Shown: in pieces, positions 16,357 through 39,594 of the stretch | How positions within the stretch are numbered: position 1 is the first letter of the stretch | Layout: each line of letters opens with the position of its first letter | Virus record (IMG/VR): IMGVR_UViG_3300033513_000012 | Span: 1-48,593 of that record | Length of the DNA: 48,593 nt | Direction: 5' to 3' (one strand) | From: a virus | Taxonomy: Duplodnaviria; Caudoviricetes | Made by a program: the position numbers and the translations under genes | The notes under the pieces: generated by a model | The model's input: only the letters and a program-made list of their open reading frames with translations | What the model was told of the DNA's origin: nothing | The model's database searches: none

Positions 16357-16636
16357 GATCGGACTCCTTGTAGCCGGGGAACTCCCGGTCCAATTCGTCG
16401 TATATGCTTTCCTCGTTTGACGGTTCGTACCCGCCAATTCCGTTCGGAATCTTAAAGACCTCAGTCCCATTGGTCTTGTAAAAATGGACAAACGGAGTTG
16501 TTGGAGATACGACGGCAAAAAATGCCACGTCCGGACTAAAAGATATGCCTGACGAATTCCTATTTTCGTTCATCGGTTTCCCATTCAACAGCCTTTTTAA
16601 CCACCGCAAGATGGCTAAGAATATATGTTTGCTCAT
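16349..16636 (-). CDS. Hypothetical protein
   Basis: 95 aa, overlap-coupled on both sides. Confidence 0.45.
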   Translation of the reverse strand: MSKHIFLAILRWLKRLLNGKPMNENRNSSGISFSPDVAFFAVVSPTTPFVHFYKTNGTEVFKIPNGIGGYEPSNEESIYDELDREFPGYKESDHG

Positions 16637-17250
16637 GCGCCCACCATTGTTTCTGGAGCCTGGCTAGGTTCATAATAAAAAGGGGCGAAAACATTCATGG
16701 AGGGTTCGGGCTCCTCGAATTGGTATCCTTCGAACAATTCCAAGGCTCGCTTCCGGATTGCCCATTCCCTGTTGATCGCAGCCAGTTCATGGACCAGCGC
16801 CGTTCTTATCTGGGCTAGCAAGACGCCTATCAGATCTTCTTGGGGCCGCTTGATGATCCGGGTTTCGGCCGCTTCCACCTCGTCCGACTTCTCCTTGCAC
16901 GCTCTAAGCTTGGCGTCTTTTTCGGATTCCCACCCGGCCCGAGCGCTTTTGATCCAATCCCGCACGTTTACCTTTCGCTCTATCAAGCACGACGAGCAAG
17001 CCGCCGCAAACAATTCCCGAGCGGCGGATTCGAGGTCGTCCGGCATGGAGTCGTCCCCCGTAGCATCGTATCGAGCACGGCGCTCGGGGTCGGACAGTAC
17101 TTCATAAGCGACGGAAAGCCGCGCCATGCTCGCTCCGTCTCCGCCCGCATCGGGATGCCGTTCTTTAGCTTGATCGCGATACGCCCTTTTGATCTCCTCC
17201 GGGGTAGCGCCACGCGGCACGCCGAGCTCCGCGTAAAGGTCCGATTTCAT
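16633..17250 (-). CDS. J-domain (DnaJ-like) protein
   Basis: LYAELGV..ATPEEIKRAYR..HPD..AYEVLSDPERRARYD. Confidence 0.92.
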   Translation of the reverse strand: MKSDLYAELGVPRGATPEEIKRAYRDQAKERHPDAGGDGASMARLSVAYEVLSDPERRARYDATGDDSMPDDLESAARELFAAACSSCLIERKVNVRDWIKSARAGWESEKDAKLRACKEKSDEVEAAETRIIKRPQEDLIGVLLAQIRTALVHELAAINREWAIRKRALELFEGYQFEEPEPSMNVFAPFYYEPSQAPETMVGA

Positions 17251-18422: not shown

Positions 18423-18547
18423 TGGAAGCGGCGGGAGTCGAACCCGCGTATTACTGACGTCCTCTTCACGGGCATAACCAGCTTGTACTTCGCCGTAGTT
18501 GCCCGCCTCCCTCGTTGCCAGCGCGCCACCCGTTTCGCTACGCTCCC
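18423..18547 (-). ncRNA. tRNA-Ala-like RNA with an enlarged, anticodon-less arm
   Basis: Acceptor GGGAGCG/CGCTTCC-A with G3:U70; U8A9, D-arm, CTGGC/GTCAG stem; T-arm GCGGG-TTCGACT-CCCGC. Confidence 0.7.
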
Positions 18548-36295: not shown

Positions 36296-36864
36296 ATTGC
36301 TACTTCCAGCCTGCTGTGGTTGTAGAGATATCCCGATTCAAGCCACGAGTCCGCGCATTCGTCGGGATTTAGATTCTGGAGTTCCCTGATCACCGAGTCC
36401 ACGGCCTTCGGTAGCCGCTCCGCAAAGAGCTTCCTAAACCTCTCGACAATAGCCTCTTCCGGCATCTTCTCCGGACCCCACGAGGCGATGAGATATTCCT
36501 CCCCGTCCTTCTTTCCCTTCACCCCTATGGCGACGGGGTCGGGCAGCTTGTCGTGAAAGCGGATGTACACCTTGGTAAAGTCGCCCGTCATCTTAGCCAA
36601 GCTTATAAGCCCAAGGGCCTCGACCGGCGGTATGTCGTGCTGGTACTCGTCTATAGAGGACTCCTCTGGACAGAGCCACTTCAAGGCGTTCTTGAGCTGG
36701 TTTGACATCTTCGGATAACCGAAGGCCACCTTCTTGCCCGCGGCCATCTTCTCCAGCGCCGAGAATCCGCCCTCCTTTACGAGACGAAGCCACTCGTCAG
36801 CTTGCTTGCCGTCGATCAAGTCCTCGTGGTCCTTCAACCTGTAATCCGTAACTACAATTTCCAT
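36292..36864 (-). CDS. Hypothetical protein
   Basis: 190 aa; GAGGAGG RBS. Confidence 0.6.
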   Translation of the reverse strand: MEIVVTDYRLKDHEDLIDGKQADEWLRLVKEGGFSALEKMAAGKKVAFGYPKMSNQLKNALKWLCPEESSIDEYQHDIPPVEALGLISLAKMTGDFTKVYIRFHDKLPDPVAIGVKGKKDGEEYLIASWGPEKMPEEAIVERFRKLFAERLPKAVDSVIRELQNLNPDECADSWLESGYLYNHSRLEVAI

Positions 36865-36923
36865 AGTTTCCTCCTCAGAATTGCGTCATCCATTTCAGAA
36901 AATTGACTCTTCATGCTTCCTCC

Positions 36924-37316
36924 CTATTCCCCCGGAATCATTGCGGCGAGCGCGTTTTCGACGGATTCCAAAATTACCCCGTCGCGCGCTATCGATGGCG
37001 GGCAATCCTTTAGGACCTTTTGGGTCTGAAGGAGCGCGAGCCGATACTTTTCCGTCTGCTCGGCTAGATTCCTTTTAATCCAGAGCGTGATGCTTTCCTG
37101 ATCATCTTCTCCGGATCGCATGAGCAGGTACTCGTCTACCCGACGGAGATCGTCTCGCAACTTGAGGATTGTTACCGACGCCTCATTCAGCCCGTCATGC
37201 ATAATGCGAACCGTATGCTCGAGAAATTCTATGCCTTTGGGGTTTAGCTCTATCGGGCGCCCGCAGTAGCTAAACATTGGGTATTGCCTTTCCGATTTTT
37301 CCGCGATACCATTCAT
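36924..37316 (-). CDS. Hypothetical coiled-coil protein
   Basis: ATGA-coupled to the upstream gene. Confidence 0.5.
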   Translation of the reverse strand: MNGIAEKSERQYPMFSYCGRPIELNPKGIEFLEHTVRIMHDGLNEASVTILKLRDDLRRVDEYLLMRSGEDDQESITLWIKRNLAEQTEKYRLALLQTQKVLKDCPPSIARDGVILESVENALAAMIPGE

Positions 37317-37522
37317 ATTGACTTTCCTTCCTTCCGCCCCGCCTGACCAGCGGGGCATTTTTCTGACAAAATCGAAAACGGCGTATTCAGAAGTTCCTTC
37401 AATAGCGCATCCGCCTTTCGATACCAAATATCCGCCATCTCGGCTTTCCCGCTTTTTCTACACCTCCTTTCCGCATCCAGAAGGCGGCGAGTTTTCGTAA
37501 CCATTTCATCGTATCGCGTCAT
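37313..37522 (-). CDS. Hypothetical protein, first gene of the leftward early operon
   Basis: 69 aa; GAGG RBS just after the promoter. Confidence 0.55.
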   Translation of the reverse strand: MTRYDEMVTKTRRLLDAERRCRKSGKAEMADIWYRKADALLKELLNTPFSILSEKCPAGQAGRKEGKSI

Positions 37523-37542
37523 TTTAGCCTCGCTAAGGTAAA

Positions 37543-37571
37543 ACTATACGCCATGTTTCAACCTTTTGCAA
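37543..37571 (-). promoter_or_regulatory. Leftward sigma70 promoter
   Basis: TTGCAA-17 bp-TATAGT. Confidence 0.75.
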
Positions 37572-37613
37572 GCGTTTTCTACCCTTTTTTTAGTCTTTTT
37601 TATCTCAATTCTC

Positions 37614-37642
37614 TTGACAATCCCAGGCGCTTAGATTATAGT
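37614..37642 (+). promoter_or_regulatory. Rightward sigma70 promoter
   Basis: TTGACA-17 bp-TATAGT with a T-rich upstream tract. Confidence 0.85.
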
Positions 37643-37654
37643 ATAAATAGATGA

Positions 37655-37682
37655 TGAGCGCGGACGACACAGGGCGTCGGCT
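37655..37682 (+). repeat. 28-nt leader repeat, copy 1
   Basis: 25/28 identical to 38124-38151. Confidence 0.85.
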
Positions 37683-37696
37683 AATGGAGATTTGGT

Positions 37697-38071
37697 ATGT
37701 ATGCGAAAATACGGATGTTTGCGACTCACAACGATACTGATAAGTGGGCAGTGTGTGTTGATGGTTTTTATGGATTATATCCCGATAAAGACCAAGCTAG
37801 TCGGGTATACAAGCTAATTGGGGGCTATGATGGCGATGACGGGCTGGCCGAAACAGCATTTGGGTCGGCGGATATTCTCCCGCCACACTACGAGGCGCGG
37901 CGGTGGGATGGAAGTGAGCCTGACGGTGGATTTGATCGTTTGTCATTGCATCGTGCAATTGATATCGAAAATTATATCAAAAAAAACAAGTGCCGTGCCC
38001 TCTCACGCATGTGTGATTCTCAGAGTTCAGCCAAGGATCGGTTATGGTTTAGGAAGCTATTTCGGGCATAA
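37697..38071 (+). CDS. Early hypothetical protein
   Basis: 124 aa; GGAG RBS downstream of a strong promoter. Confidence 0.65.
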   Translation: MYAKIRMFATHNDTDKWAVCVDGFYGLYPDKDQASRVYKLIGGYDGDDGLAETAFGSADILPPHYEARRWDGSEPDGGFDRLSLHRAIDIENYIKKNKCRALSRMCDSQSSAKDRLWFRKLFRA

Positions 38072-38124
38072 CGCCCTGACGAGCCGGTGAAATTCCGGCG
38101 AAGCCGACTACGGGCGGTCGGCGT
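38071..38124 (+). ncRNA. Type I hammerhead ribozyme (A15.1G variant)
   Basis: ACGCC-CTGACGA-GCCGG(TGAAATT)CCGGC-GAAG-CCG..CGG-TC-GGCGT; predicted cut after C38119. Confidence 0.7.
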
Positions 38125-38151
38125 GAGCGCGGACGACATAAGGCGACGGCT
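38124..38151 (+). repeat. 28-nt leader repeat, copy 2
   Basis: 25/28 identical to 37655-37682. Confidence 0.85.
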
Positions 38152-38165
38152 TGGAGGAGACCGAG

Positions 38166-38399
38166 ATGAAACGAAGAGCGGAAAAAACCAAAATTGCGCG
38201 GATTTTTGAATACGTCGGCGGCTACTTTTGGTGCGATGCGGCCAGCGAAATCTGGGACGCTCGCGGACATGCCTACCAGACCAAAGCCGCGGCGATGGAA
38301 GCGGCGGCCCGCGGTGGATACCGCTATGCGATCGGTTCCGGGACTTATTGGGATGGCGTACGGGCTATCCCCGAGTATATAAGGGCTCGCGCCCGCTAA
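38166..38399 (+). CDS. Early hypothetical protein (77 aa) flanked by hammerheads
   Basis: GGAGGAG RBS and ATG at 38166. Confidence 0.7.
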   Translation: MKRRAEKTKIARIFEYVGGYFWCDAASEIWDARGHAYQTKAAAMEAAARGGYRYAIGSGTYWDGVRAIPEYIRARAR

Positions 38400-38421
38400 T
38401 CCTTTCGCTTGGCTTCGGCCA

Positions 38422-38472
38422 GGTCGGGGCGTTAGGCTCGCCCCCTGATGATGGCCGAGCACGGCCGAAACC
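38422..38472 (+). ncRNA. Type III hammerhead ribozyme
   Basis: GGTC-GGGGCG(TTAGGCT)CGCCCC-CTGATGA-T-GGCCG(AGCA)CGGCC-GAAACC; predicted cut after C38425. Confidence 0.8.
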
Positions 38473-38489
38473 AAATTGAGAGGTATAAC

Positions 38490-38849
38490 ATGAACAAGAC
38501 GAGCGCAATCTCCGAGACCATAAGCAGCGCGGCGAGAGAACTCGGTCGATTAGGACGAGCGGCCATGACCAAAGCCCAGGCCGCGGCGTCGCGCGCCAAC
38601 GGCAAAAAAGGTGGGCGCCCGAAAAAAGCTCGTTCCCCAGCTCGCTACGCGATTAGCAACGCATCCGGCGTTTCCTGCGTGGCTTCTTCGCGTACGATGC
38701 TCGGCGCCAAGCGCGAAGCGAGCGCCCAAGCGACATTCGGCGGCGGAGACGTCGAGATCGTTGATCTCGAAACCGGGGAACGATGGCGCCGTGTTTTTTG
38801 GCAAAAGCTGCATTGTTTCGGCTGGGAGCCTTGGGAAGAAGTGGGCTAA
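38490..38849 (+). CDS. Early protein with an AAASRANGKKGGRP DNA-binding-like motif
   Basis: GAGAGG RBS; recurrent phage motif; stop overlaps the convergent stop. Confidence 0.65.
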   Translation: MNKTSAISETISSAARELGRLGRAAMTKAQAAASRANGKKGGRPKKARSPARYAISNASGVSCVASSRTMLGAKREASAQATFGGGDVEIVDLETGERWRRVFWQKLHCFGWEPWEEVG

Positions 38850-39223
38850 GGGAACGACAAGTCGATCACGAACCCCACGCCGGCTCCGGCGGCCGCCCCC
38901 CACGGGACGCCGCCCCAGCCGGCGAACGCGTATCCGGCGAACCCTCCTCCCGCGGCGCTAGCGAGGCCTACGGTCACCTTTAGGAGCAGGATTTCCGCCT
39001 CCGCGCGTGATTTTAGCGCGCCTAAGGATTTGGACAATTCGGCCAACTCCTTTCCGCGCGTTATCAGCTCCGTCCTGAGCTCGTTCCAGTCCGGCCCCGA
39101 CAGAGTCGCCGTGTCCAGCGGCCCCAGGACCGGAAGGCTTTCCGGGTCGTCCCAGCCGTCCGAAAAGGAAAACCGCGACAAGAAAAGCAACAGCGATAAG
39201 GCCAGAAATGATCTCTTGCACAT
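38846..39223 (-). CDS. Spanin-like exported protein (signal peptide, coiled coil, C-terminal Gly-zipper membrane segment)
   Basis: TGATG-coupled after the holin; AAGGAG RBS. Confidence 0.55.
   Translation of the reverse strand: MCKRSFLALSLLLFLSRFSFSDGWDDPESLPVLGPLDTATLSGPDWNELRTELITRGKELAELSKSLGALKSRAEAEILLLKVTVGLASAAGGGFAGYAFAGWGGVPWGAAAGAGVGFVIDLSFP
38958..39221 (-). CDS. Embedded i-spanin-like protein (N-terminal TM plus helical region)
   Basis: GTG 2 nt from the ATG of the enclosing gene; IISGLIAVAFLVAVFLF TM. Confidence 0.5.
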   Translation of the reverse strand: MQEIISGLIAVAFLVAVFLFGRLGRPGKPSGPGAAGHGDSVGAGLERAQDGADNARKGVGRIVQILRRAKITRGGGNPAPKGDRRPR

Positions 39224-39594
39224 CAGGGCTCCTTTTTGTTGGTGCCTTCCACCGACCTGTACGGCGGCTGGTCGGTTCCGGCCACCAGGTTTCCGAGCCC
39301 CTCGATAAGGTGCAGGAACGTCTTGATCACCACGTCATACCCGAGCTGCACGGTGGCCAGCGTCAAGAAGGTGACGATGGGCCATAGGAGCAACCCCGCC
39401 TTCAGCGTGGAGTCTTCCAAGACCGGCCAGACGACCGCGGCGGCCAGGCCAACGGCCACGGACAGCAGGCCCGTGATGAGCGGCCAAGCCCAGTCTTTCT
39501 TGGCCTTGACGGCCGCGACGAGCGCCCGCGCCCACTGCACGTCGCCGATCACGCCGAACGACGCGATCAGGATGAGAAACAGGATCGTGTTCAT
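39223..39594 (-). CDS. Holin-like membrane protein
   Basis: About three TM segments, charged tail; AAGGAGG RBS. Confidence 0.65.
   Translation of the reverse strand: MNTILFLILIASFGVIGDVQWARALVAAVKAKKDWAWPLITGLLSVAVGLAAAVVWPVLEDSTLKAGLLLWPIVTFLTLATVQLGYDVVIKTFLHLIEGLGNLVAGTDQPPYRSVEGTNKKEP

Follow-up and report, generated by a model that had tools for sequence, protein, structure and literature searches.

Hammerhead ribozyme folds in both gene junctions of a plus-strand three-gene unit of a tailed phage

Genomic context of the three-gene unit

The window, that is, the whole stretch of DNA analysed here, is a complete virus record of 48,593 bp with direct terminal repeats, the sequence of which occurs in a wetland metagenome. 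PHROG matches of terminase, portal, tail sheath, baseplate, replication and recombination genes identify the virus as a tailed bacterial phage. Nearly all recognised genes are carried by the minus strand, and a unit of three genes, ORF1, ORF2 and ORF3, lies on the plus strand behind a strong promoter match (Table 1), from which, at the usual promoter spacing, transcription is predicted to start at about 37649-37650. We infer from this promoter and from the layout that the unit is expressed early. The terminase matched 805 phage records, all at less than 60% identity and the 10 listed at about 25%, and these matches are so distant that no host can be assigned. A blastn comparison of 37600-38900 with GenBank phages returned only three short matches at chance level. 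The Erf-like gene of the phage has counterparts in two loci at 44-47% identity, which share no neighbour among the 14 window proteins tested and contain no hammerhead. One of the loci retrieved from the viral collection, L084, is identical in sequence to the window; it contributes to the type III loop set (27 pairs) and to no other count.

Neither ORF1 nor ORF2 has a PHROG or Pfam match. Two homologues of ORF1 were found (52-66% identity), and its stop codon (38069-38071) shares base 38071 with the first base of stem I of the upstream hammerhead described below.

Table 1. Features of the three-gene unit and its surroundings (positions in the window)
Feature	Position	Strand	Basis or remark
Weaker divergent promoter-like site	37571-37543	-	9/12
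Sigma-70-type promoter, TTGACA-17-TATAGT	37614..37642	+	11/12 match
Leader repeat, copy 1, 28 nt	37655..37682	+	between predicted start and ORF1 ribosome-binding site
ORF1, 124 aa	37697..38071	+	ORF call; no function assigned
Predicted duplex, 5' arm	38063..38080	+	pairs with 38423-38440 at 17/18 positions, G-U included
HH1, type I hammerhead, stems 5/5/4 bp	38071..38124	+	descriptor and covariance model
HH1 stem I	38071-38075/38120-38124	+
HH1 core CUGACGA	38076-38082	+
HH1 stem II	38083-38087/38095-38099	+	7-nt loop
HH1 GAA	38100-38102	+
HH1 G15.1.U16.1	38103 and 38118	+	replaces A15.1-U16.1
HH1 stem III cap C(UACG)G		+	
HH1 predicted cut	after C38119	+	GUC triplet
Leader repeat, copy 2	38124..38151	+	from fifth base after predicted HH1 cut
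Shine-Dalgarno sequence GGAGGAG of ORF2	38153..38159	+	sequence
ORF2, 77 aa	38166..38399	+	ORF call; small family without assigned function
HH2, type III hammerhead, stems 6/5/3 bp	38422..38472	+	descriptor
HH2 stem III	38422-38424/38470-38472	+	A15.1-U16.1
HH2 predicted cut	after C38425	+	GUC triplet
HH2 stem I	38426-38431/38439-38444	+
HH2 core CUGAUGA	38445-38451	+
HH2 extra U	38452	+	between A9 and G10.1
HH2 stem II	38453-38457/38462-38466	+
ORF3, 119 aa	38490..38849	+	N-terminal KKGGRP-type motif, common in viral contigs

Two hammerhead folds in successive gaps

Both successive gaps of this promoter-led phage unit hold a hammerhead on the coding strand, a type I fold (HH1) between ORF1 and ORF2 and a type III fold (HH2) between ORF2 and ORF3, and the sequence and the descriptor search bear out what an earlier note on this DNA had said of their positions, types and GUC triplets. 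The arithmetic of that note is also correct, in that cuts at the two predicted sites would release a 306-nt RNA (38120-38425) holding the Shine-Dalgarno sequence, the complete 77-aa reading frame and its stop.

HH1 and HH2 are the only descriptor matches on either strand of the 48.6-kb genome. With the same descriptor, which had been relaxed after the motifs had been seen, 300 dinucleotide shuffles gave 35 matches in total, three of them with at least 14 stem base pairs (the number found in both HH1 and HH2), and a single same-strand pair within 1 kb. Both hammerhead folds exceed chance. Folding z-scores lend no support to HH1 alone (-0.66) or HH2 alone (-1.25).

Because the descriptor had been relaxed in this way, a covariance model (R1) was built as an untuned check from 50 type I hammerheads of other phage contigs, all of which have the A15.1-U16.1 pair, having been selected for A. 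On this model HH1 scores 35.0 bits (E 1.4e-6), the next-best match reaching 10.8 bits, and the score falls within the range of 28-68 bits spanned by the full-length matches in 31 held-out loci. The Rfam hammerhead models (RF00008, clan CL00010), with which the earlier note had proposed to check the motifs, reach the gathering score with neither: on RF00008 HH1 gives a partial 18.2-bit match (E 1.3), and HH2 gives 25.3 bits (E 0.013) against a cut-off of 48.5. Both are hammerheads by their folds, and depart from the textbook consensus in the G15.1.U16.1 pair of HH1, which the earlier note had overlooked, and in the extra U and 3-bp stem III of HH2.

The upstream motif as a core variant

HH1 has the core bases C3 U4 G5 A6 N7 G8 A9, G12 A13 A14, U16.1 and H17 (at 38076-38082, 38100-38102 and 38118-38119) and lacks the A15.1-U16.1 pair, with G at 38103; on its sequence it is classed as a hammerhead core variant and not as a consensus member. 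Its 7-nt loop II resembles those of three natural motifs (L096, L102 and L135) and may form five Watson-Crick pairs with 38059-38063, a number reached by 9 of 229 natural motifs; the natural motifs show no excess of such pairing on the upstream side, however, at least 4 bp being found upstream in 40/229 and in the downstream control in 73/229. A competing hairpin across the cut site is made longer by G38103, and for the motif in isolation this hairpin is the fold of lowest energy. When 20-nt flanks are included, 4.8 kcal/mol is needed to reach the active fold, a cost equalled or exceeded in 16 of 219 natural type I motifs; among GC-rich ones, 14/88 are as costly. A stop codon adjoining stem I is a common arrangement in type I hammerheads (90/221). 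Two other registers, a type III register via 38064-38076 and one pairing G15.1 with C38122, were rejected by inspection, since they would either place G at position 17 or disrupt stem I, and a hybrid hammerhead joining the HH1 core to the HH2 substrate misses the register by 2 nt.

Mutation of A15.1 is stated to lower hammerhead activity more than 100-fold in the text available of PMC4075628, which cites earlier work, and PMC3088659 gives a loss of at least 10-fold for mutants at 15.1/16.1. The available text of the latter also reports that some core variants found in nature, U15.1-A16.1 among them, retain cleavage at lower efficiency, and its methods use A15.1 paired with U16.1 as a filter criterion. 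For extended natural hammerheads, the accessible parts of the literature give no specific effect of an A15.1-to-G change, and the published statements there concern the position and not the base; G15.1 is not named in the main text of PMC3088659, though its Figure 5, S6, S7 and Dataset S1 may cover it.

The rarity of G at this position was assessed in the viral collection by scans for one stem II pattern, with loci not dereplicated. The pattern allowing A or G gave 128 matches in 125 loci from 8 of the 64 parts of the collection (about 1000 stretches estimated), of which 125 have A, 115 of these forming full hammerheads, and three have G, none forming a hammerhead. When the entire collection was scanned for G alone, 41 loci were obtained, with no type I fold (stem I of at least 4 bp, stem III of at least 3 bp), and the best score on model R1 among them was a partial match of 22.1 bits. 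The only G15.1 hammerhead candidate in these 41 loci is a possible type III motif with G15.1.U16.1 and stems of 5/4/3 in L230, near 801 on the minus strand, which may be due to chance. A15.1 thus appears close to invariant in natural hammerheads. Because G15.1 is rare in nature, loss of activity is reported for changes at A15.1 and a competing hairpin is predicted, the reading that suits HH1 best is that of a genuine hammerhead in a damaged or damped state, which likely cuts poorly. The base itself rests on one assembly, and G38103 could be an error.

The downstream motif

HH2 has every consensus core base, the A15.1-U16.1 pair, a GUC site and perfect stems I and II. Its loop I (GCU) is complementary to its loop II (AGC), a predicted contact of a kind that is seen more widely: in 27 type III loop pairs, the window included, loops I and II form on average 3.07 Watson-Crick pairs, compared with 2.51 +/- 0.14 for shuffled partners, and 0 of 1000 shuffles reached the natural value. 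The additional U between A9 and G10.1 marks a subtype that, to judge from these scans, is common in viral contigs: of 130 matches to the extra-U pattern, spread over 124 loci, 124 form full hammerheads (one stem II pattern, 14 of the 64 parts of the viral collection; about 550 stretches estimated). The subtype, represented here by L259-L382, is abundant in viral contigs, and its type III members show partner-specific pairing of loop I with loop II. The extra U after A9 also occurs in a type II hammerhead at about 2270-2325 on the plus strand of L026, some 700 nt upstream of a gene with the KGGRP motif.

Hammerheads of the CChMVd plus-strand type (de la Pena and Flores 2001, cited in PMC6155905) reportedly have one extra nucleotide at the same place, between A9 and G10.1, where a U is reported to be benign. 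HH2 differs from the CChMVd type in that its extra base is U and in its setting in a DNA phage.

Stem III of HH2 is only 3 bp long, a length shared by 2 of 18 distinct type III relatives, and weak stems III are described as very common in bacterial hammerheads in the text available of PMC3088659. An upstream hairpin competes with stem II, and with 20-nt flanks the active fold costs 6.6 kcal/mol, as much as or more than which is required in 3 of 26 natural type III motifs. With its short stem III and this hairpin, HH2 may also be slow. The folding costs modelled for HH1 and HH2 lie in the unfavourable tail, yet inside the natural range.

Duplicated leader and predicted long-range pairing

The 28-nt stretch that precedes the ribosome-binding site of ORF1 recurs ahead of ORF2, with 25 of 28 positions identical and in register with both ATGs (offset 469); the best of 60 shuffles reached 22/28. 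At this offset the end left by the HH1 cut, 38120, corresponds to 37651, which is 1-2 nt from the predicted transcription start. A small hairpin is possible in copy 1 and is broken in copy 2; the leader sequence rather than a hairpin fold seems to be kept. The pattern of the repeat was found in none of the stretches of viral contigs scanned, and in the fetched loci the motif is absent apart from one match with 7 mismatches. The arrangement, seen at one locus, suggests that HH1 is placed to give ORF2 a primary-like 5' end.

The regions of the two ribozymes are also complementary to each other over 18 nt. The 5' arm of the predicted duplex spans the ORF1 stop, the 5' strand of HH1 stem I and core positions C3-N7, and overlaps a local hairpin (38064-38076) that is also a competitor of stem I; the 3' arm, 38423-38440, covers the HH2 cut site and loop I. 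In full-transcript folds the 12 inner pairs have probabilities of 0.58-0.98. The duplex was noticed post hoc; pairing over 18 nt was reached by 0 of 530 control pairings (three reach 17) and by 1 of 45 tandem hammerhead pairs, and the total duplex energy of the two regions is ordinary, 148/265 and 132/265 controls being as strong. As modelled, the duplex would block both ribozymes. Once both cuts had been made, the same duplex would keep the outer two RNA pieces joined.

Homologues of the bracketed gene and of ORF3

A protein search with ORF2 returned six homologues with 58-70% identity over the best segment, and homologues at 45-60% identity are encoded in 11 other loci, two of which are near-identical and several of which lie on contigs too short to show much flank; no close relative of the phage is among them. 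When ORF2 alone served as the query, no viral locus was retrieved, and its structural look-alikes in the Atlas stay below the bar for naming. No hammerhead was detected in the 11 loci by descriptor or model R1, and 10 of them, compared with Rfam, gave no match; on this comparison the ORF2 gene does not need flanking hammerheads. In one locus (L082) the homologue lies directly 3' of an 11/12 promoter. In two others (L087 and L088), inspection by eye shows that a GC-rich hairpin to which a ribosome-binding site is joined recurs at successive gene junctions around the homologue, that is, where the window phage has its hammerheads.

In L085 (631-1557, plus strand) a single 308-aa reading frame contains both the ORF2 domain and, in an in-frame fusion with it, the KGGRP motif with which ORF3 of the window starts, a hint that the ORF2 and ORF3 domains may work together. 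Among loci with the ORF3 motif, descriptor matches occur in 3/80, that of L026 being the convincing one; these counts point to no fixed link between hammerheads and genes with this motif.

Relation to known phage hammerheads

Hammerheads in phage gene gaps are not new. In the viral collection, at least two same-strand hammerheads were found in 21 of 125 loci and in 17 of 75 loci over 1.5 kb, which suggests that clusters are common in viral contigs. The layout itself, with hammerheads flanking a small phage gene, has been known since 2011: as far as the text available of Perreault 2011 (PMC3088659) goes, hammerheads flanking single phage genes were described and found to cleave, three clusters were cut in vitro, and those of its Figure 3 come from Clostridium scindens, Azorhizobium caulinodans and Agrobacterium tumefaciens. 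Here as there, sense-strand hammerheads in successive gaps flank a small gene of varying identity, processing was proposed and circularisation raised. The present pair differs from the clusters of that text, which were shown to cleave, in the G15.1.U16.1 pair of the upstream motif and in that its cleavage is a prediction; moreover, the leader that follows the HH1 cut copies the primary leader, and an 18-nt complementarity links one ribozyme to the other.

Processing of a polycistronic transcript by intergenic hammerheads without protein is a published working model (PMC3088659; PMC6765202, section 13), which the section cited of PMC6765202 treats as suggested and unproven, and the role of phage hammerheads is called an open question in the part available of PMC6155905. 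The protein-free division of the first transcript into monocistronic mRNAs that was proposed in the earlier note fits the anatomy and this model; less secure is the clean excision of the 306-nt piece, which needs a fast HH1 and is doubtful because both ribozymes would have to be fast and HH1, as a G15.1 variant, is altered at an important core position. As in the glmS ribozyme and the haloviral HHphage, the predicted cut of HH1 lies shortly 5' of a ribosome-binding site and would yield a 5'-OH mRNA, and for HHphage a transcript end has been mapped within 3 nt of the cut, according to the sections available (PMC6765202; PMC3997798; PMC3088659). The glmS ribozyme, as described there, belongs to another class, is metabolite-gated and triggers decay by RNase J; no ligand is indicated for HH1 or HH2.

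Predicted fate of the putative 306-nt fragment

The earlier note went on to suggest that the piece could be closed by host RtcB into a stable circular mRNA. RtcB joins 5'-OH and 2',3'-cyclic phosphate ends, which are those left by hammerheads. Neither RtcB nor RNase E is to be assumed for the host. RNA-ligase families gave no match among the ORFs scanned (30 with PHROGs and 54 with Pfam, a subset of all ORFs), and no long terminal repeat is found in 36800-39300.

The folding of the fragment gives the idea no support. Pairing between the first 12 and the last 12 nt of the 306-nt piece has a probability of 0.0; at the 5' end 28 nt stay as a loose tail, and the 3' end pairs internally. Paired ends were found in only 2 of 44 fragments lying between tandem hammerheads elsewhere (one further fragment, of more than 900 nt, lay outside the 44 folded), and the folding z-score of the piece, -0.38, is also without support. 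The length is divisible by three, but because the stop stays in frame a circle would add no new product.

Ribozyme-flanked circular RNAs, namely retrozymes, viroid-like RNAs and engineered Tornado cassettes, have in common with this locus two self-cleaving sites and 5'-OH and cyclic-phosphate ends. In contrast to them, the locus has no terminal repeat or tandem monomer, its ribozymes are of different types, the released ends have no stem between them, and no circle has been observed.

The earlier note knew of no characterised circular role for phage hammerheads; the idea of one is not new, as it was raised in Perreault 2011 (PMC3088659), in the available text of which circular and spliced cluster products were sought and none found. 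The papers retrieved on self-cleaving ribozymes, phages, RtcB and circular RNA do not, as listed, describe a circular mRNA of a phage. With regard to stability, triphosphate and circular RNAs are attacked by RNase E more than 10-fold more slowly than 5'-monophosphate RNA in the text available of PMC3997798, and the 5'-OH RNA left by the glmS ribozyme is broken down by RNase J according to the parts available of PMC3997798 and PMC11780869; whether a new 5'-OH end protects or destabilises an RNA depends on the nucleases of the host.

Interpretation

The reading that we consider probable, by a modest degree, is that the hammerheads in both junctions are protein-free mRNA-processing sites, of which HH2 cuts and HH1 cuts slowly or hardly at all. 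The host RNA polymerase would make one ORF1-ORF2-ORF3 transcript; cleavage by HH2 after C38425 would put ORF3 on its own 5'-OH mRNA and would leave an ORF1-ORF2 mRNA with a 2',3'-cyclic phosphate end. HH1, placed for a primary-like 5' end of ORF2, would with its G15.1 cut a minor fraction of the transcripts, and the 306-nt piece would be a minor, linear species. The purpose of such processing is likely to be separate stability or translation of the early genes.

If G15.1.U16.1 is tolerated thanks to tertiary contacts, or if G38103 is an assembly error, both ribozymes may be active enough to release ORF2 as a linear 306-nt monocistronic mRNA. This is possible, if unlikely: HH1 keeps the other hallmarks (the 35-bit score, the 7-nt loop II, the C(UACG)G cap and the possible pairing of loop II with 38059-38063), the leader repeat lies right beside its cut, and some natural variants, including U15.1-A16.1, cleave, less efficiently, in the text available of PMC3088659; yet no type I hammerhead with G15.1 was found among the 41 loci, against an estimate of about 1000 stretches that almost all have A, the active fold is as costly in few natural motifs, and the upstream loop pairing, being more frequent in the downstream control, lends weak support. 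That both motifs are relics of a once-active cassette and the operon is now read uncut would account for the core change in HH1, the 3-bp stem III of HH2, the unfavourable folding costs of both and the homologues of the bracketed gene that lack hammerheads, but it is opposed by the undamaged core of HH2, its fully paired stems I and II and its loops that can pair, and weak stems III are very common in bacterial hammerheads according to the available text of PMC3088659; we consider it quite improbable.

A conformational switch, in which the duplex and the stop-codon hairpin hold the ribozymes off until ribosomes finishing ORF1 release them, is improbable. The duplex does dominate the full-transcript folds, extends over the HH1 core as well as the cut site of HH2 and includes the ORF1 stop in its 5' arm, and its 18-nt length is reached by none of the controls and by one tandem pair; against this stand its post hoc discovery, a match owed partly to fixed core bases and to both sites reading GGUC/GG, its ordinary energy, the 342 nt, with a translated reading frame among them, that separate the arms, and the frequency of stop codons beside type I stems I. 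Circularisation of the excised ORF2 RNA by host RtcB into a stable, translated circle is very improbable: the end chemistry fits, the fragment holds the Shine-Dalgarno sequence, the reading frame and its stop, and circular RNA is cut more slowly by RNase E in the available text of PMC3997798, but an active HH1 is required, the ends of the fragment are predicted to be unpaired, as in nearly all tandem fragments, circles and spliced products were looked for without success in the available text of Perreault 2011 (PMC3088659), no RNA-ligase family was matched among the ORFs scanned, and the circle would open no new frame.

The most far-reaching combination of these elements, in which a damped G15.1.U16.1 HH1 is coupled to a duplex that locks both ribozymes and is unlocked by ribosomes terminating on ORF1, is a speculative model to which we attach a slender chance. 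Were it true, the ORF2 message, with its leader-copied 5' end, would be freed only when ORF1 is translated, which would amount to control of an early phage operon by two ribozymes under a translational gate; that a circular ORF2 mRNA is formed in addition is less likely still, and highly doubtful. The in-register leader copy hints that such ribozymes may make promoter-like 5' ends for downstream genes. HH1 would further represent a natural G15.1 core variant, and the predicted inter-ribozyme duplex bears on the mutual control of clustered hammerheads.

Other features of the phage genome

Several minus-strand features outside the unit deserve mention. A protein encoded at 33137-34051 matches a PHROG annotated as CRISPR/Cas-associated (phrog_1706, E 3e-20), and one at 16633-17250 has a DnaJ domain (PF00226, E 1e-16). 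A 125-nt tmRNA-like gene at 18423-18547, which leaves no room for a tag reading frame, has a T arm, an alanine-type acceptor stem with G.U at the third pair, an A discriminator and a 58-nt hairpin insert where the mRNA-like domain would be; the G.U pair and the A discriminator are features that we take to signify alanine identity. ARAGORN reports nothing at this position, and the gene scores 32.9 bits (E 1.8e-11) on the Rfam tmRNA model, with a cut-off of 47, and 37 bits on the tRNA model. It resembles the 'TLD only' tmRNA of mycobacteriophage DS6A as described in the available text of PMC4131195.
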